A DNA stretch of 64,000 nt from Acidobacteriota bacterium. Its GTDB lineage: Bacteria; Acidobacteriota; UBA890; WLXD01. The notes beneath the pieces were generated by a model. The model was given only the letters and a program-made list of their open reading frames with translations, was not told where the DNA came from and did no database searches. Made by a program: the position numbers and the translations under genes. The stretch spans positions 1,216,001 to 1,280,000 of the forward strand of contig CBDBHB010000008.1 in the NCBI GenBank assembly GCA_965205505.1, given 5' to 3'. Below, piece by piece: positions 34,528 to 42,870 of the stretch (positions are counted from its first letter, which is position 1; each line of letters starts with the position of its first letter).

Positions 34528-34662
34528 TCAGTCGTCGCGCACCCAATCGAAACTCGTACAGCATGCGACACAGTAGTACTGCGCCACCATCATGTGGCAA
34601 CCGTAGATCGAGACCGGCTCGGTATCCGCGCTGCCGCAAAAGACACATGCCACCGTCGGCAT
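34528..34662 (-). CDS. PaaD-like stand-alone zinc-ribbon mini-protein
   Basis: CVFCGSADT...YYCVAC..SFDW; adjacent to a paaA-like gene; start uncertain. Confidence 0.6.
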   Translation of the reverse strand: MPTVACVFCGSADTEPVSIYGCHMMVAQYYCVACCTSFDWVRDD

Positions 34663-34745
34663 GGCGGCGCGCGGAACTACCGGCTGGCGGCGGCGTCCGC
34701 TCCTGTTCGGCAACCCGATCAACCTGCCGCTGCGGCCTGCGCCCA

Positions 34746-35267
34746 TTAGTCGGCGATGCCCACTGAACGCGCGTGAGCTCCAGTGATCCTGGCGAAAGAC
34801 TCCGGGTCGAAGGCCGGGACCCCGACGCGCCGGGTGCTCTGATTCCAGCTACTCCAGTCGACCTGGCAATCGACCACCCAGGCGCCGTTCTTGGCAACAC
34901 AAACCTCTACCCACGAATCGAGCGGCACGTCGAGGGCGTACGGGTAACGGAATTCGTGCGGCCGACGCTCGTACATCAGCCAGTCGCGATCGACGCCCAG
35001 CTCCTCGAGCACCCGGTAGGCGATGTGCGCGTGGGCGAGCTCATCCTGGATGATCGCCATCGCCGAGATCATGCTGTTGACCGACGGCGCCTTGCGAGCC
35101 GCGTAGTAGTAGGCGGGCGCGCTCAGCAGCTCTGTATCGCCCGACACGGTGACAATGTGGCGCAGCTCGCGCTGGTACTCCTCGGTCATCTCACTGACCG
35201 ACTCGATCAGGCCGCCTTCCTGAACCGTCTGTCGAAGAAGCGCATCGGCGCGCGTGCTCAAAGACAT
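34746..35267 (-). pseudogene. PaaA/PaaC-like diiron oxygenase subunit, internally deleted
   Basis: GDTEL, APS, QDELAHA (first ExxH), PLDSWVE, then an abrupt switch to a C-terminal-like tail; second ExxH half is missing. Confidence 0.65.
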
Positions 35268-35313: not shown

Positions 35314-35591
35314 CTAGTGGCCTGTAACAGATGATCGTTGCATATCGCAGATGGGATTTACGGGTGAGATCAAGGCGCGGCGAGGAAGGCGATGCAATGG
35401 GCATCGTCGACGAGGCGCAACGCCGATATCGCCCGCAACTGCCCATCTGTCCGCAGGATGGCGGCGAAATCGGCCCGTCTGCGGCGTTGCTCCTCCTCCA
35501 AGATGGGCAAACATCGTCTCGTCGTCGCGCCTGGCATCCGGACCCATTTCGCCACCACGATATGCAACGATCATCTGTTACAAGCCCCTAG
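35314..35591. mobile_element. Complete 278-bp MITE-like element, family A
   Basis: 34-bp TIR CTAGTGGCCTGTAACAGATGATCGTTGCATATCG with 2 mismatches (35314-35347 and 35558-35591); partial copies at 7635 and 50762. Confidence 0.85.
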
Positions 35592-35686: not shown

Positions 35687-35905
35687 TCAGCGAGCCGCCT
35701 TGTGACGCGTTGGCGACGGTCCCGTTGCTCCCTGACGCAGACGCTCTTCGAGCCGCATCCCGCACGTTTCGCAGACGAGGCAATGCGCCAGAATAGCCAC
35801 TGCGTGGCCACTGGCCAACGTCCCGCGCACGTAGTGTCGGAGCTCGATCTCGGCCGGGTGTATTTCGCTCCTGGCAGTGCCGGGGCTGCCTCGGGTGCTC
35901 GTCAA
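35687..35905 (-). CDS. Stand-alone zinc-finger anti-sigma (zf-HC2/ZAS) mini-protein
   Basis: IHP..ELRHYVRGTL.......ILAHCLVCETC; ATGA-coupled to the upstream paralog. Confidence 0.72.
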   Translation of the reverse strand: MTSTRGSPGTARSEIHPAEIELRHYVRGTLASGHAVAILAHCLVCETCGMRLEERLRQGATGPSPTRHKAAR

Positions 35906-36126
35906 TGCGTCGCTCTTGAAATTGCGTACGCCTCACCAAGACCAAGACGGACGCTAGACCCGCCCTGGCCAGCGGCCGCTCGCAACCACAAGAGCCCACG
36001 AGCCTGATTGCCGCAGGTGTCGCAAACGAGGCAGTGGCAATGCAATCGGTGCGCTTCATCAGGGGCGAGCGCCCCGTTGACAAAGTCCACGATCTCCAAT
36101 GCATCGGGATGGATCGTGCGATTCAT
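35902..36126 (-). CDS. Stand-alone zinc-finger anti-sigma (zf-HC2/ZAS) mini-protein
   Basis: IHPDALEIVDFVNGAL.......LHCHCLVCDTC. Confidence 0.75.
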   Translation of the reverse strand: MNRTIHPDALEIVDFVNGALAPDEAHRLHCHCLVCDTCGNQARGLLWLRAAAGQGGSSVRLGLGEAYAISRATH

Positions 36127-36159
36127 TGATGATGCCCTGTCGATCCAGGAGCTCGTTCA

Positions 36160-36855
36160 CTACGCTGTCTCGGACCCGGGATCGCGTGCGAAGCCGAACG
36201 GCGACTCCGCACGCGAGTGGGTCCCCATGCGCCGTGCCCTATGGCCGGTCCAGCGCAGCGTCGGTCGTGAGCATCGCTGAGCTAGCGCCCGGGGGGTCAT
36301 CGCAGAGCGAGCCCATGTGTGCACGACGGCCTGATCGGCGATGTTCAATACACCGCTCCAAGCGGCAATGCCGCGGGTCACCGGATCGATGCCCAGGGTG
36401 CTCGGGTACCCGGACAACCCGAGGAGCGGCAGCACCGCCGGATCGACCAGCCGCACCGGCAGGTCGAGCTCGTGCATTGCGAGGAAGTCCCGCGTCTCGC
36501 GGGCCGCGCTGACCGACAGCACATAGATCTCCGGCGCTCGCGGACCGAGCTCGTCGATCCGTGCTGCCAGGCTCCGCCATTCCGACATGTTCTGCTCGCA
36601 GAACGGGCAGGTCGTGCTCAGCACGAACAGCATCAGCGGCGCCTCGCGGCCGCTTACCTGGAGCACCGCATCGACCCCGCCGAGCGTCCGGGCGGGAATG
36701 TCGACCGGCGCGGTAACCGGACCCGCGCTGCCCGACGACTCCGCATGCGTCACGTAGTTGTGCTGCACCAGCTGGCCTAGCCAGGCGGTCCCGGCAATCA
36801 GCGCCAGGATGGTGGTCACCTCAGCGATCTTGGCGAGTCGGGGCATCGACGTCAT
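36160..36855 (-). CDS. Membrane-anchored thioredoxin-like (TlpA/redoxin) protein
   Basis: N-terminal TM helix, LFVLSTTCPFC, cis-Pro GYPST; start may be ATG 36846; last ~40 aa may be read-through from an indel in the G6 run at 36291-36296. Confidence 0.8.
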   Translation of the reverse strand: MTSMPRLAKIAEVTTILALIAGTAWLGQLVQHNYVTHAESSGSAGPVTAPVDIPARTLGGVDAVLQVSGREAPLMLFVLSTTCPFCEQNMSEWRSLAARIDELGPRAPEIYVLSVSAARETRDFLAMHELDLPVRLVDPAVLPLLGLSGYPSTLGIDPVTRGIAAWSGVLNIADQAVVHTWARSAMTPRALAQRCSRPTLRWTGHRARRMGTHSRAESPFGFARDPGSETA

Positions 36856-36858
36856 CTC

Positions 36859-37086
36859 CTAGAGCAATGCGCAGGTGCTCGAGCCGCCGCCGCCCTCCTC
36901 ACATCTCCAAAAGCACTTGCAGCCCCATTGGTGGTACACGGCGCAATCCTCACAGTTGGCAGCGCACTCGTCGGCACATGGGCCATGCAGGGCCTCGGCT
37001 TGCGAGGCCTGAAACGACAGGCCGAACGTCAAGAGAATGGCCCAGCTAATGAGCAGGACCTTTTTCCAGTTGATCGAACGTTGTAC
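36859..37086 (-). CDS. Secreted cysteine-rich peptide (signal peptide + 43-aa 8-Cys core)
   Basis: Basic N-region, hydrophobic core, AEA cleavage site, mature LHGPCADECAANCEDCAVYHQWGCKCFWRCEEGGGGSSTCALL; strong SD AAAGGAGG at 37093-37100. Confidence 0.78.
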   Translation of the reverse strand, partial: VQRSINWKKVLLISWAILLTFGLSFQASQAEALHGPCADECAANCEDCAVYHQWGCKCFWRCEEGGGGSSTCALL

Positions 37087-37130
37087 GGTGTTCCTCCTTT
37101 GCCAGGTGGCGGGTACCTGCTCAGACAAGG

Positions 37131-37146
37131 AGCAAGGCGAATGCCG
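37131..37146 (-). promoter_or_regulatory. Putative sigma54 -24/-12 promoter of the peptide operon
   Basis: CGGCAT-TCGCC-TTGCT has exact GG-N10-GC spacing and sits about 30 nt upstream of the SD; a GAFTGA activator gene lies 1.8 kb away. Confidence 0.68.
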
Positions 37147-37306
37147 AACCGCGCCACGGCCGGGCAGGAGGAGACAAACCCCGACTTACAAACAACTTAC
37201 GGAAAGGTCTCGGGCCGCTGGCCGGCTCCGCCTCAACCGTGAAATAAGGGCGGGCGGCTATCCAGCGTGGCTCAGGCGCTGGCCGGCGGGCAGCCGGCCG
37301 GGGCGG

Positions 37307-38152
37307 CTAATGCAGCTCGAGTAGAAGCTGTTTGACAGCTTCCTGCAGTCGATCCGGATCGGATCCCGGATCCGGCACGATTCGGCGAAGCAACTCGCGC
37401 GCCGTGTGGTCATGGCCAGCCTGCAGGTAGAGTCGCGCTAGGTAGTAGGCGGCCGCGTGCCCGTTGGAACTATCGGTGAGCTCGAGATCGTCCAGTACCG
37501 TCACATGAGCCTCCAGCGCCTGACGTGCCGCCGGTAGGTCGCTCCCGTCGAAGAACAACGCCAAGCCGAGCAGAGGCGTTCCGAGGGGATGATAGGAGCT
37601 GGCGAACCCACCCAGGGCTCGCGCCGCGTCGCCGTACTCACCATCGGCCAGGGCACGAACGCCCGCCTGCAGGGCAGTGATCACCTCCGCAGCGCCTACG
37701 TTGACATTCGTAGCGGGATTCTCAGCGCCGACGATCATGCTGCCGAGATCGGCGACCTTCTCGATGATGCCAATGTCGGCCAGCGTAATCTCGGTGAAGA
37801 CTCGCACGCCAGTTGGCGAACCACTCGCTCCGTCCGGCGACGCGGCCACTATCGCCTCGACATCGATCGGGCCCCGCGTCGCCGGTGCAGCGCCGCGCCC
37901 CGCAACCCAGGCCGCCGCGCCGACAAGCACGATCACCGCCGCGGCGGCGGCGGCGATCGATCGACGAGCGTACCAGGGTACGGACGATCGCAGCGGAGCG
38001 GCGCCGCGTAGGAGAATGATGGCGGCCAACTGATCGCCGCAATCGCGGCAGGCGAAGCAATGTTTCCGCACTTCCTCGGCGCGCTCTTCGCTCAGACAAC
38101 CACGAACGTAGGTCACCATGTCCAGCGGATCCGCGTGCACAACCAACGTCAT
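37307..38152 (-). CDS. Membrane-bound ZAS anti-sigma factor with extracytoplasmic TPR-like helical domain
   Basis: H..LDMVTYVRGCL......VRKHCFACRDC, one TM helix, AAAYYLARLYLQAG; ATGA overlap with the sigma gene. Confidence 0.8.
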   Translation of the reverse strand: MTLVVHADPLDMVTYVRGCLSEERAEEVRKHCFACRDCGDQLAAIILLRGAAPLRSSVPWYARRSIAAAAAAVIVLVGAAAWVAGRGAAPATRGPIDVEAIVAASPDGASGSPTGVRVFTEITLADIGIIEKVADLGSMIVGAENPATNVNVGAAEVITALQAGVRALADGEYGDAARALGGFASSYHPLGTPLLGLALFFDGSDLPAARQALEAHVTVLDDLELTDSSNGHAAAYYLARLYLQAGHDHTARELLRRIVPDPGSDPDRLQEAVKQLLLELH

Positions 38153-38709
38153 ATCTCCCAGTCCTCGCCGGATTCCGATTCCATGCGACGCCCGACCTGC
38201 AGCAATGCTGCTTGTAGCCGACTGTGCACCGTGCTGATCGGAGCTGCTTGGATCGCCGCTACCTCGCCCAGCTTCATCGGCGGGTCACGCAATACCAACA
38301 ACTCGAGCACCTCGCGGTGAACCGGCGCCAGGTCGCCTATCAGTCGCAGCGCCACCTCGACAAGATGCCGCCGGGTGCGAGATTTCTCCTCACGGAGCAA
38401 CATGCGCAATGGATCGGAGGAGATTTCCTCGCCCGGCACCGGCGGCGGTACTTCGTCGAGCGGTAGCAGCCGCCGCCGTTGCTGGAACATCTGCAGAGCC
38501 GCCGTACGAACCGCAGTAAGCACGTAGTTGTGCGCGTCTTGTTCGCTGCCGAACTTCGGCCGCGCGCGAACCGTGCGAGCTACGGCTTCCTGAACTACCT
38601 CCTCGGCGTCCGTCACATTACCCATGAGGGACAACGCGTACCCTCTCCAACGCTGAAACCGGGAGAACCACGCTTTTTCGATGTAGCCGTAGGAAGCTGG
38701 TTGAGACAC
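38149..38709 (-). CDS. ECF sigma factor
   Basis: DAEEVVQEA (region 2), HREVLELLV...EVAAIQAAPISTVHSRLQAA (region 4); GTG 38709 follows AGGAGG. Confidence 0.87.
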   Translation of the reverse strand: MSQPASYGYIEKAWFSRFQRWRGYALSLMGNVTDAEEVVQEAVARTVRARPKFGSEQDAHNYVLTAVRTAALQMFQQRRRLLPLDEVPPPVPGEEISSDPLRMLLREEKSRTRRHLVEVALRLIGDLAPVHREVLELLVLRDPPMKLGEVAAIQAAPISTVHSRLQAALLQVGRRMESESGEDWEI

Positions 38710-38924
38710 AGGCTTGCAATCCTCCTGGCACTCGCCGGCACCGGCAAGGTGACCATCCTGGTATGGCAGTCGCAACGGCGTCAATGGGTGAGTCGGAAAA
38801 CCGCGGACGCTCGAGGGCCGTTGCAAAAAACTTCCACAACTACGGGACCCGACAGCGGTACACCTGGTGATTCGACGGGCTCCGCCAGGTACGATCCGTA
38901 CGGGGGCAGAACTTCGGACGGCTA

Positions 38925-39932
38925 GTGCGACGTACCACAGGTCACCCTCGGCCGGCTCGGCGCAGCGACATTCGCTTGCTCGGTGGCAGCGATACGATGT
39001 GTCAGGTCCGCGATCAAATCGAGGTCGCTGCCCGATATACGGAGCCGGCGCTCGTGCTTGGTGAGACGGGCGTTGGCAAGGAGCTGGTGGCGCGGCAAAT
39101 TCACAGTCACAGCTCGAGATCGCGTGCCCAGCTCGAGATCGTGAATTGCGCCGGGCTAAGCCCGGATTTACTCGCCTCTGAGCTGTTCGGTCACCGCCGG
39201 GGCGCCTTCACCGGCGCGGATCACGACCGCGCCGGCCGCATCAGGGCCGCCGATGGCTCGACCCTGATCCTGGATGAAATCAGCGAAGCGCCCCGGTCGC
39301 TCCAGGCCACCGTGTTGCGTGCGGTGGAATACGGCGAGGTCCAGCCAGTCGGATCCGATTCCGTCTTCCAAGTCGACGTACGATTCGTGGCCACCAGCAA
39401 CAAGACACTGCACGAGCTCAGCCAGGGCAGCGCTTTCCGCATCGACTTGTTGCACCGTCTCGCTGCCTTCGTCATCCGCATCCCGCCGTTGGCCGAACGA
39501 CTGGAGGACCTGGAAGAGATCGCAACCGCGTACCTCGCAACGCTCGCCGCTCAGTATGGGTGCTTACGCCACCTAAGCCCCGGACGGCTAGCACTTCTTG
39601 GCGACCAGGCCTTTCCCGGAAACGTACGCGAGCTACGCCAGATCCTTCTCCGCGCCTATGCAGCTTCGCGCGATGAGGTCATCGCCCCCGCCGCGGTCGC
39701 GGCGGCGATCTTGCCCATTGACCGGCAGCCGACCGCCGCCATGTCCGACACCACACCGACTTCGCTCGCACTCGAGCAGGTGGTACGGCGACATATCCGC
39801 CAGGCGATCGCTATGGCGGACGGCAACCTGAGCCAGGCCGCGCGCTTGCTCGAGATTCCGCGCAGCACGCTGCAGCACTACCTGATCAAGTACCGGATAC
39901 AACCGCCAGCTCGCGGACGCGCCGCCCGCTAG
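38925..39932 (+). CDS. Sigma54-dependent enhancer-binding protein lacking an N-terminal sensory domain
   Basis: GETGVGKE, SELFGHRRGAFTGA, LILDEI, FPGNVRELR, Fis-type HTH GNLSQAARLLEIPRSTL. Confidence 0.9.
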   Translation: MRRTTGHPRPARRSDIRLLGGSDTMCQVRDQIEVAARYTEPALVLGETGVGKELVARQIHSHSSRSRAQLEIVNCAGLSPDLLASELFGHRRGAFTGADHDRAGRIRAADGSTLILDEISEAPRSLQATVLRAVEYGEVQPVGSDSVFQVDVRFVATSNKTLHELSQGSAFRIDLLHRLAAFVIRIPPLAERLEDLEEIATAYLATLAAQYGCLRHLSPGRLALLGDQAFPGNVRELRQILLRAYAASRDEVIAPAAVAAAILPIDRQPTAAMSDTTPTSLALEQVVRRHIRQAIAMADGNLSQAARLLEIPRSTLQHYLIKYRIQPPARGRAAR

Positions 39933-39962
39933 CAGGCCGGGTGGAAGTGCGGCGGGCCAGGG
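39929..39962 (+). repeat. Degenerate left end of family B element
   Basis: CTAGCAGGCCGGGTGGAAGTGCGGCGGGCCAGG; contains the activator's TAG stop. Confidence 0.7.
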
Positions 39963-40104
39963 GCGTTCGCCTCGCCGGCGAAGGGATCCATCAAGAGGAT
40001 CTCGGAAAAACCGCAGCACCGAGCTTCCTCCTAGCGAGAACCGTTTCTTACACGGGTGGTCCTCTGTCGAGCGAAGCATCCAAACTGCAACGAGCGGAGC
40101 AATC

Positions 40105-40600
40105 ATGCAGGCCTCGTCAGAGGGTGTACGACCGTCGGGACGCGAGGTGGCAGAGCTTGCGCGTGCACATATAGAGTGCCACTACGCATCGGCTGTCGGA
40201 TGTGGCACCACCAGCATCGCGACGCTACTGGGAGTCTCCTCATCGCTGCTGTGTCACCGATATCGCGCTACCTACGGGGTGACGATCGGTCAGCACGTCC
40301 GTAGGCTGCGCATCGGCAAGGCGCGTAGGCGAGCTCAGCTCGCGACCCCGTCAGCTGATCAAGGAAGTCGCAGCAGACGTGGGCTACTGTCGGCAGTCAT
40401 ACCGCACATTCCTCAACGCCTTCCGGGCCGAAACCGGTATGCCACCGAGCCGTTACCAGCGCCAGGTGCTCGCCCCGATTCAGGCCACACCGATCAAGGT
40501 AAAGGTGCCGCACCGGCGCCCGGATCAAGCTCGCCGTCGCAAGTCTGATGCGCTGCCCCAGACAGGCACCGACGTCTCGGTTCAGGCAGGAACGACCTGA
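40105..40600 (+). pseudogene. AraC-family DNA-binding-domain-only regulator, frameshifted near 40325-40345
   Basis: First HTH (IATLLGVSSSLLCHRYRATYGVT) in one frame; second HTH (LIKEVAADVGY..FLNAFRAETGMPPSRY) in another. Confidence 0.72.
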
Positions 40601-42112: not shown

Positions 42113-42133
42113 GTGTCCTGTAACAGGACACTA
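42113..42133. repeat. Short palindrome resembling a collapsed family A element
   Basis: GTGTCCTGT-A-ACAGGACAC-TA; the minus strand reads TAGTGTCCTGTTACAG versus TIR TAGTGGCCTGTAACAG. Confidence 0.45.
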
Positions 42134-42179
42134 AGGGCGCAGGGCAACCGAGAGCCGGCAATGAGCCGGCGCCACGTTC

Positions 42180-42661
42180 TCAGGTGAGCAGCACGAAAGC
42201 CGCCGCTGAGGCGGCAACTTGGATCGTGAAGTTATCGAGGCCGTGGTTGCTAACCGCCTCAACAAGCGCACCGAAGACGCCGCACGCAACGCCGGCGGCC
42301 ACCGCCATCCCGGCGGAGAGCCCGAACAAGCAGAGCCCCGCTGCTGCAGCAATCGCATCGCCCCAACCGCAGACCAAGTAGCCCACGAACGCGAACTGGG
42401 GAAAGAACAGATTGCTAGCCAGCCCGCCAGCAGCCGTCGTAGCCAACGGTACGAGGATAAACAGCGATCTGCGGGGCCGATCGGTGTCGCGTACCATCGC
42501 CTCGTAGATCGGATAGCCGTCGCCGCGCCATACCGAGTAGTGCACGATCGAGGCGACCAAGCTGCCGAATAGCGACACTGCCGGGAGACCTGGAACCCCT
42601 CGCGGTTCAGAAGAAACTCGAACACGTAGGCCATGTCGATGTCGTCCTCGGCTACCATCAG
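42180..42661 (-). pseudogene. Chimeric remnant: receiver-domain N-terminus joined to a deleted phytol/dolichol kinase-like gene
   Basis: LMVAEDDIDMAYVFEFLLNREGFQV followed by GWGDAIA and EAVSNHGLDN motifs; intervening conserved segment and N-terminus are absent. Confidence 0.6.
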
Positions 42662-42870
42662 ACGAGGAATGTGCAATCGGCTCACCGGCTCGGCTCCTAG
42701 AATCATCTCTAACGTCGTTCGCCCTGGGCGGGTGACCGCGTTGATACGCAGGGTGTCAACAGCGATGCTAACAACGTGCGTTGAACACCAGAAGCTAAGT
42801 TTTATTATTATTATTTTTTATTGGTTATTATTAGATAAACTTAGACATTAAAAGATGTCTGAGGACGGCC

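Follow-up and report, generated by a model that had tools for sequence, protein, structure and literature searches.

The window analyzed here is a 64,000-nucleotide stretch of an Acidobacteriota bacterium (positions 1,216,001 to 1,280,000 of contig CBDBHB010000008.1, GenBank assembly GCA_965205505.1), and our subject is a cassette of eight genes at positions 35687 to 40600 in which a small disulfide-rich exported peptide is encoded among regulators. The host genome is 5.98 Mb and 96% complete. All eight open reading frames (ORFs) were found at the positions and on the strands given by a first-pass annotation of the sequence. The minus strand encodes, in order, an extracytoplasmic function (ECF) sigma factor, a membrane anti-sigma factor with a ZAS domain, an eight-cysteine precursor, a CPFC thioredoxin, and two ZAS mini-proteins, and the plus strand encodes a bacterial enhancer-binding protein (bEBP) and an AraC-type regulator. 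All of the regulators come from known families; the novel elements are the peptide family, the placing of a sigma54 relay within an ECF operon, and the mini-ZAS paralogues that selection maintains. The translational coupling noted earlier was confirmed as an ATGA overlap of the ECF and anti-sigma genes, a 3-nt gap between the peptide and thioredoxin genes, and a TTGA overlap of the two mini-ZAS genes. The features are as follows.

38149..38709, minus strand: ECF sigma factor; likely GTG start at 38709, with the ORF open to 38826; Pfam Sigma70_r2, E 3e-8
37307..38152, minus strand: anti-sigma factor (ZAS, one transmembrane (TM) helix, low-complexity linker, periplasmic TPR), ATGA-coupled to the ECF gene
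37245..37260, minus strand: candidate enhancer, a degenerate palindrome that precedes the -24 element by ∼115 nt; weak evidence for the window copy
37131..37147, minus strand: sigma54-type -24/-12 promoter of the peptide operon; GGCA and TTGC invariant
36859..37086, minus strand: peptide precursor, 75 aa, eight Cys (alignment, profile, ratio of nonsynonymous to synonymous substitution (dN/dS), AlphaFold model)
36160..36855, minus strand: TlpA/ResA-like membrane-anchored thioredoxin (CPFC); ResA E 9e-9, TlpA E 1.5e-4
36184..36214, minus strand: GC-rich hairpin between the thioredoxin and ZAS1 genes, no T tract; -39 kcal/mol for 36170-36225
35902..36126, minus strand: stand-alone ZAS mini-protein 1 (ZAS1), 74 aa, no TM helix; 36.5% identity to the anti-sigma N terminus
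35687..35905, minus strand: stand-alone ZAS mini-protein 2 (ZAS2), 72 aa; TTG start overlaps the ZAS1 stop; ChrR-family match, E 1e-4
38755..38784, either direction: bipartite element, sigma70-like or ECF-type promoter; found in 10/10 family loci
38825..38897, plus strand: A-tract and TACGAT-like block upstream of the bEBP gene, candidate promoter or operator; seven family loci
38925..39932, plus strand: sensor-less sigma54 enhancer-binding protein (AAA+, GAFTGA, Fis-type helix-turn-helix (HTH)); Pfam, clade
40002..40028, plus strand: candidate ECF-type or operator element upstream of araC; near match, weak, not distinctive genome-wide
40105..40600, plus strand: single-domain AraC/XylS-type regulator, frameshifted near 40331; intact in relatives
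35314..35591, no strand: miniature inverted-repeat transposable element (MITE), 278 nt, 34-nt terminal inverted repeats, CTAG-bounded; cassette border, not part of the cassette

Gene products and promoters of the cassette

The ECF sigma factor, identified by its Sigma70_r2 domain, was 80 to 93% identical across four genomes of the genus and was placed in a quick tree only. Its gene lies directly upstream of that for a 281-aa protein with an N-terminal zinc motif (H6...H31xxxC35xxC38), one TM helix at residues ∼66 to 84, and a TPR-containing outer part, the arrangement of an ECF/ZAS anti-sigma pair for which zinc binding and sigma sequestration are predicted. The zf-HC2 match of this anti-sigma factor (E 0.002) was below the cut-off, and the outer part of ∼190 aa, comprising the linker and TPR, matched TPR alone in the Pfam scan, with no CHAT domain. 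Across five genomes of the genus, identity was 78% for the ZAS part and 50% for the outer part. An RseP homologue is present in the host genome.

The peptide precursor comprises a 32-aa signal-like leader and a 43-aa mature domain that carries all eight cysteines. Secretion had been proposed for it earlier, and the Sec signal features (basic N-region, hydrophobic core, and AxA site, AEA in the window) are conserved as judged by eye and from hydropathy, with no dedicated signal-peptide predictor. The cysteine pattern of the window peptide is C-x3-C-x3-C-x2-C-x7-C-x-C-x3-C-x9-C, and that of the family is fixed as C-x3-C-x3-C-x(2-5)-C-x7-C-x-C-x3-C-x9-C. The family is named by no library searched: the window peptide and three relatives gave no Pfam match above the cut-off and no DUF2282, the score for TIGR04117 (the Cys-Xaa-Xaa-Xaa radical SAM target) was 17.8 bits versus a cut-off of 50, all Atlas matches were under 0.9, and the PDB sequence search with the mature alignment returned two chance matches only. 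The AlphaFold model of the mature domain (pLDDT 82) consists of one helix and three strands (alpha-beta-beta-beta). It gave no Foldseek match at E 0.001, and its best structural match, to unrelated chains, had a Z of 3.5 and an rmsd of 2.6 over 43 aligned residues, which decides for neither a new nor a known fold. A model of the full-length peptide was discarded for the fold search, the signal helix having dominated it and left its matches uninformative.

Cys5 and Cys8 were jointly lost in 7/59 distinct sequences, compared with single losses in one and two (Fisher p 8e-7), with probably only about three independent events behind the joint losses. This co-loss makes it very likely that Cys5 and Cys8 form a disulfide. 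The mature net charge was zero or negative in 50/59 sequences and +3 or more in none, with a median of -3, and there is about one His or Met per mature peptide. The joint loss and the acidic-to-neutral charge favor disulfides over metal binding or antimicrobial action. Among the five genus genomes, the leader was 86% identical and the mature non-Cys positions were 43% identical. The dN/dS was 0.29 for the peptide, 0.35 for its mature part, and 0.64 at the mature non-Cys sites; pooled values were 0.14 to 0.36 for the genes and regions scored, in a table that excludes the ECF and ACT rows, and 0.13 for the flanking ABC ATPase gene.

The thioredoxin was confirmed as a TM-anchored CPFC protein. 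It has the N-terminal TM helix, CxxC motif, and thioredoxin fold of TlpA/ResA proteins, falls below the Pfam and NCBIfam cut-offs, and finds its nearest solved relatives in ResA and TlpA, with a weak match to MauD (E 0.01). The thioredoxins of relatives stop at the position matching 36239-36241. TlpA/ResA-type thioredoxins are reductases or isomerases rather than oxidases. The idea that the peptide is folded by its own oxidoreductase is weakened by this type and by the absence of the thioredoxin gene from 13 of 28 peptide loci in the DNA fetched. DsbD/CcdA and VKOR are present in the host genome, where a search for DsbB found none. At five other loci (L059:6443-7297, L061:3562, L063:6921-8219, L065:2045-3433, and L066:923-2212), the gene after the peptide opens with the membrane segment of the thioredoxin (WLGxLxxHN) and continues as a glutaminyl cyclase or DUF5128 propeller. 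The WLGxLxxHN anchor itself may contact the peptide or the anti-sigma factor.

Both stand-alone ZAS ORFs carry the H...HxxxCxxC motif and are under purifying selection (dN/dS of 0.16 for ZAS1 and 0.25 for ZAS2). ZAS1 also matched the sigma-binding domain of the anti-sigma factor with a profile probability of 98%, and its Atlas matches were zf-HC2 clusters at 0.96 to 0.97 with a family share of 14 to 33%. The stop/start overlap of the two genes is kept in seven genomes. The mini-ZAS genes are family-specific and were matched in 9/10 other genomes of the family, beside thioredoxin ends or at contig ends where the assemblies break. Their homology to the anti-sigma factor points to the ECF sigma factor rather than the bEBP as the target. 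The 5' arm of the hairpin stem preceding ZAS1 is conserved in 5/5 genus genomes; its folding energy was computed without a shuffle control.

The proposed sigma54-type promoter, GGCA-N6-TTGC, was invariant in 10/10 aligned loci, with GGCA and TTGC standing as invariant islands in the ten aligned spacers, and recurred in 7/7 loci of a paralogous subfamily. The background was 318 sites in 12 Mb of both strands (0.027 per kb). The sigma54 promoter consensus is GG-N10-GC. This consensus, an upstream enhancer candidate, and rpoN in the host genome were all found, and promoter activity is predicted. A palindrome with two to four mismatches to the family consensus lies at -111 to -144 in 9/10 loci (five mismatches in the tenth), the consensus being derived from those same sites and matched at 81 genome sites with two or fewer mismatches. 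In the paralogous subfamily, a perfect 18-nt palindrome at -135/-136 was found in 5/7 loci; an insertion has displaced it in another, and in the last a contig end truncates it. A scan of sigma70 promoters and terminators gave zero promoters and two terminator-like sites, versus 1.0 and 3.3 expected, and no RNA run containing the sequence was among the 24 runs listed.

The divergent activator proved to have the GAFTGA motif, Walker B, and HTH with no N-terminal sensor, as the first-pass annotation had described. In a tree, the bEBPs of ten cassettes group as a single clade (support 100/98), as do the seven of the paralogous subfamily, and both clades are separate from nine other bEBPs of the host genome; the bEBPs of the subfamily have ∼110 to 120 extra N-terminal residues with no Pfam match. 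Of 28 peptide loci, 16 had both the sigma54 motif and the bEBP gene, 11 had neither, one had the motif without a bEBP, and no locus had a bEBP without the motif. A sigma54 step tied to the local bEBP is well supported.

The sensor-less AraC gene is present, but an inserted base near 40331 breaks its reading frame in two. The insertion is defined relative to three relatives, and because no indel was seen at 40331 in any of four runs (from four studies), the species as a whole shares the break. The gene is intact (140 to 160 aa) in G001, G002, G004, and G008, with HTH_18 at E 1e-16 for the G001 copy, whereas several relatives have a truncated gene or none. An ECF-like bipartite element lies ahead of the bEBP gene in 7/7 loci of the paralogous subfamily and 3/3 loci of genus g3, araC in 3/5 loci, and the ECF gene in 3/4 loci where the peptide gene is directly coupled to the anti-sigma gene; at araC the match is strict in those three loci and near in the window. 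The element at 38755-38784 reads TTGAC...xAxGAT toward the ECF gene or ...CGTCAA toward the bEBP gene and has only six genome sites. The A-tract/TACGAT block occurs in the seven loci of genera with araC or its remnant and is absent from the three loci of the genus without araC. With the best ECF-like copy lying before araC, this pattern suggests, as a lead only, that the ECF sigma factor might act on the bEBP through AraC in the window and without it elsewhere. Outside the cassette, the small AraC has close homologues at G003:C2:5715640-5715963, G005:C5:1136709-1137041, and G011:C1:4768825-4769139, the last near another thioredoxin of the same type.

Distribution and wirings of the peptide loci

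The peptide family had 49 members in a full scan of 1.84 billion representatives. Of ten members looked up, one was named (a HEPN fusion) and the rest were unnamed, and a word-based homologue search with the single peptide returned a 97% neighbor only. A 10-row peptide profile gave matches in 16/26 genomes of the class. A 61-row profile, with 14 candidates scored per genome, gave matches in 14/401 genomes of the phylum, 13 of them within the class and one weak match among the 383 outside it. That outside match (G398, E 6e-5) has no anti-sigma gene on its 5-kb contig and was excluded from the 28-locus count. The anti-sigma factor was matched in 9/11 genomes of the family and the bEBP, at E 1e-70 or better, in 11/41 related genomes. 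A metagenome scan returned two loci, both essentially copies of cassettes in the genome set.

The question of whether the genes co-occur, raised in the first-pass annotation, was answered by the 28 peptide loci of the class, which reveal a conserved and co-inherited system. An anti-sigma gene lay upstream of the peptide in 27 (the remaining locus is at a contig end), and an ECF gene in 24. Of the other parts, a downstream thioredoxin was found at 15 loci, a strict sigma54 motif at 17, a bEBP at 16, and mini-ZAS genes at seven. The core is thus the anti-sigma factor plus the peptide, and everything else is modular.

This core occurs in three wirings. In the family of the window, the ECF and anti-sigma genes are followed by the sigma54 promoter, peptide, thioredoxin, and one or two mini-ZAS genes, with a divergent sensor-less bEBP. 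In the paralogous subfamily of the sister family (seven loci), the order is ECF, anti-sigma, sigma54 promoter, NHL propeller, peptide, and usually thioredoxin, and the bEBP is convergent with an unnamed N-terminal domain. In six other loci, the peptide gene starts immediately where the anti-sigma gene stops, no sigma54 motif or bEBP was found in the DNA fetched, and DUF5128 propeller genes mostly follow; such direct abutment is as expected of a stoichiometric partner. At L025 and L059, the anti-sigma and peptide genes are retained and the ECF gene was not detected. Two tandem peptide copies were found in G021 and five peptide matches in G011.

Several further loci were noted. The second copy of G002 (L025:8148-9765) has the anti-sigma gene, sigma54 motif, and peptide but lacks the ECF, thioredoxin, and bEBP genes; it looks like an island between two tRNA-like copies and has an extra ZAS-like motif upstream in the anti-sigma frame. 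The G011 cassette at L034 is split by an IS21-like pair. Just past its thioredoxin gene and a second ECF gene, and following a propeller-like gene, are three tandem genes (L034:12974-14759) for exported proteins of 175 to 187 aa, each with a Cys-rich domain (CxxxCxxC...C...C...C) and, for the two scanned, no Pfam match. At L097:480-2200 (G019), a weak ECF match, a related thioredoxin, and a different exported Cys-rich protein lie in a row and may be another type of cassette. The second copy of G010 (L033:10392-12773) has the bEBP, ECF, and anti-sigma genes in tandem and is cut by a contig end.

Possible roles of the peptide and the predicted circuit

Sensing of the peptide by the outer domain of the anti-sigma factor, suggested in the first-pass annotation along with co-folding of the two, received weak support. 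When anti-sigma residues 118-281 were co-folded with the mature peptide, the median score was 0.49 compared to 0.01 for the best control (runs of 0.00, 0.49, and 0.54), with contact agreement of at least 0% and a partner pLDDT of at least 57. In the calibration, the passes at 0.60 or below comprised 18 of 157 solved complexes plus both mismatches that passed. Distances between peptides tracked those between outer domains beyond the distances of the ECF sigma factors, with a partial r of 0.53 (0.19 for the ZAS part) over 17 loci, of which related ones are not independent. The mature non-Cys positions and the outer anti-sigma part are the fastest-changing parts, in comparison to the leader, ZAS part, and ECF sigma factor.

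Together with the almost constant pairing of the anti-sigma and peptide genes, these results lead us tentatively to favor the explanation that the peptide is a Sec-exported mini-protein with four disulfides that binds the TPR domain of the anti-sigma factor as a co-sensor or as a feedback ligand or cap, in a lineage-specific ECF envelope-signaling module. RseB, which caps RseA in the periplasm, is the model for such a role. The genes, their conservation, the motifs, and the selection are direct observations; for binding, direction, and signal, the steps that follow are our inferences. The ZAS-TM-TPR protein very probably holds the ECF sigma factor, which would be released upon disturbance of the outer domain and cleavage by RseP, as judged from the family. 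The peptide is, with similar confidence, predicted to be exported and disulfide-bonded. The TlpA-like protein, fed by DsbD/CcdA, plausibly proofreads or reduces the peptide as an optional component. In the family of the window, the sensor-less bEBP, whose activity would be set by its own synthesis, probably fires the sigma54 promoter to yield the peptide, thioredoxin, and two soluble ZAS proteins. The ECF sigma factor could act upstream of the bEBP, directly or via the small AraC, although we would put this slightly below an even chance. The mini-ZAS proteins would mop up free ECF sigma factor, a step that we judge to be evenly balanced, and extra peptide might re-cap the anti-sigma factor. 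By mop-up and re-capping together, the output would switch the circuit off after a delay.

Several observations weigh against this explanation. Co-fold passes of the class obtained here are more often wrong than right unless the interaction was likely beforehand, and one of the three runs scored 0.00. Shared ancestry alone makes fast-evolving secreted parts co-vary. Short contigs (under 8 kb) account for six of the 11 loci lacking the bEBP, and related loci do not count as independent. Ahead of the bEBP gene of the window, no clear ECF-type promoter was identified; the ECF promoter pattern was drawn from the same sites and matches 330 places in the genome, among which the araC site ranks near 28, and because it is palindromic in L025 it may be an operator. 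At least one lesion is carried by 4/5 genomes of the genus: the window genome, G002 (early stop in the ECF gene), G003 (ECF frameshift and bEBP-araC deletion), and G004 (truncated bEBP and thioredoxin frameshift). Comparison with sequencing runs covered the lesions of the window genome only. There, the assembly has GTA as the peptide start codon; run X1, possibly the source sample, agrees with it, and 3/4 runs have GTG. At 36290, an indel in a run of G residues displaces the reading frame of the thioredoxin tail in the assembly, and the same three runs differ at this position. The circuit may be decaying and partly dead in the window strain though the family is under selection.

Four other roles were considered for the peptide. 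It may be a plain output effector (a protease or enzyme inhibitor, a lectin-like or surface ligand, or an oxidant buffer) that the regulators switch on under envelope stress. A strong ribosome-binding site together with a dedicated sigma54 promoter and enhancer would fit high, switch-like output, the tandem copies in G021 are compatible with such a product, the NHL/DUF5128 propeller and glutaminyl cyclase genes that flank the peptide elsewhere could be its partners, and bufferins are ECF-regulon effectors (PMC11626156). We nevertheless consider this role unlikely, because the near-invariant linkage and direct coupling are to the anti-sigma gene and not to any one downstream gene, the co-fold gave weak support, and the peptide diverges in parallel with the outer domain. 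That same divergence, on a hypervariable surface over a fixed disulfide frame, would also suit a pheromone that diffuses, is specific to the lineage, and is read by the TPR domain, with the ECF sigma factor serving quorum or kin sensing, the bEBP giving positive feedback, and the mini-ZAS proteins damping. The need of sensor-less activators for an upstream switch, as stated in PMC3105312, and the several paralogous cassettes per genome (five peptide matches in G011) agree with a pheromone. This alternative is less probable still: no outer-membrane exporter was seen in the cassette, so the Sec product should stay periplasmic, the mature dN/dS (0.64 even when Cys sites are removed) is not above 1, and the directly coupled loci have no amplifying promoter.

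The first-pass annotation had also offered a role as signal or metal ligand; the signal part is weakly supported, as above, and the metal part is disfavored. ResA/TlpA proteins reduce metal- or heme-binding thiols, so that an unmodified bufferin- or metallothionein-like chelator loaded or kept reduced by the TlpA-like protein was conceivable in view of the eight cysteines and acidic mature part, and ECF-linked Cys-rich metallophores exist (PMC11626156). The Cys5/Cys8 co-loss, the compact alpha-beta-beta-beta model, and the scarcity of His and Met argue against chelation, which we regard as quite improbable. The MNIO enzyme, noted earlier as absent, had no match in the host genome or in 26 class genomes, a Caulobacter control being detected, and this too speaks against chelation. 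Lower again, and in our estimate highly improbable, is an antimicrobial role akin to that of defensins or bacteriocins, with a dedicated thiol-disulfide oxidoreductase encoded alongside, as happens in glycocin and pediocin clusters. The helical CxxxC and strand CxC recall cysteine-stabilized alpha-beta peptides, and bacteriocin clusters with such oxidoreductases are reported in the literature. The peptide lacks the cationic character of defensins, however, and no ABC exporter, immunity gene, or glycosyltransferase adjoined it among the ORFs inspected.

Returning to the anti-sigma ligand, we regard its fuller version as doubtful: that the mini-protein, stapled by its disulfides, co-evolves with a TPR anti-sigma factor as its cognate ligand and that an ECF/bEBP/sigma54 relay makes both this ligand and soluble copies of the zinc domain, giving built-in feedback and lineage-specific pairs. 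If it is true, the cassette would exemplify peptide-ligand signaling through an ECF sigma factor in a diderm bacterium. For most membrane anti-sigma factors the cognate signal is unknown, and outer domains of the TPR type have received little study. The candidate ligand of 43 residues and receptor domain of 160 residues offer more than 20 natural pairs small enough for binding and cross-specificity tests, and specific pairs would provide orthogonal peptide-inducible switches, with the peptide as a new disulfide scaffold. The three wirings of one core can be read as follows: the peptide gene is coupled directly to the anti-sigma gene, or it is placed under a sigma54 relay whose bEBP carries a sensor, or under one whose bEBP has none and which adds soluble ZAS decoys. 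If the peptide partners the anti-sigma factor outside the membrane, the gene set, which is conserved among a group of uncultured Acidobacteriota, would be a self-adjusting envelope sensor; the copy in the window strain is partly damaged.

Neighboring sequences and comparison with known systems

The repeats at 35314 and 39929, listed in the first-pass annotation as elements of the locus, were rejected as cassette parts because both are dispersed genome-wide. The MITE occurs genome-wide in 21 full-length copies, besides numerous partial or diverged ones, and the 39929 repeat is a short piece with six look-alikes of 30 to 45 nt elsewhere. At 34528-35267 of the window, a paaA-like gene covers the first ∼110 of 263 profile positions and then continues in another frame into a PaaD-type zinc ribbon; ∼2 kb at this site is missing in the window and present in G002, G003, G006, and G007, in which the paa-like and ABC neighbors are syntenic with the cassette. 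A membrane-protein gene at 42131-42706, which relatives have as one uninterrupted ORF, seems disrupted, and along with the condition of paaA and araC this suggests local gene decay.

A literature search, with most subscription papers outside its coverage, found no description of this arrangement, and no such group appeared in the passages covered of the ECF re-classification (PMC7826278). Bufferins under SigF-NrsF (PMC11626156) resemble the window peptide as Sec-exported Cys mini-proteins tied to an ECF/anti-sigma pair, and they need MNIO and DUF2063 to make thiooxazoles. The window peptide differs in having no MNIO match, another Cys pattern, and no DUF2282, and its driver appears to be a sigma54 promoter rather than an ECF promoter. 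DdvA of Myxococcus xanthus has a TPR-CHAT domain of ∼900 residues and controls CBASS-CRISPR (PMC11506125). In contrast to DdvA-DdvS, the window anti-sigma factor has only its shorter linker and TPR with no CHAT match, and its linked genes are those for the peptide, thioredoxin, and sigma54 relay. PspF-PspA and HrpRS-HrpV/HrpG-HrpL, as covered in PMC3105312, are similar in that the bEBP is only AAA+ plus HTH and is linked to an ECF sigma factor and small, possibly trans-acting proteins. The HrpRS-sigma54-HrpL analogy of the first-pass annotation is probably reversed, because HrpRS activate an ECF gene (PMC3105312) whereas the window sigma54 promoter lies downstream of the ECF/anti-sigma genes and serves the peptide operon. 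Unlike HrpV and PspA, the small proteins of the window are ZAS domains homologous to the anti-sigma factor.

The thioredoxin shares its N-terminal membrane anchor and CxxC thioredoxin fold with TlpA, ResA, StoA, and MauD and differs from them in the CPFC motif and in adjoining a small eight-Cys protein as the candidate substrate. A further parallel to the predicted module is rpoE-rseA-rseB of Escherichia coli, in which an ECF sigma factor and membrane anti-sigma factor are likewise followed by a co-encoded periplasmic protein of the kind that may cap the anti-sigma factor. RseB is a large protein of the lipoprotein-carrier fold, and RseA has neither a zinc site nor TPR; the window instead pairs a 43-residue disulfide domain with an anti-sigma factor that has both a zinc motif and TPR.

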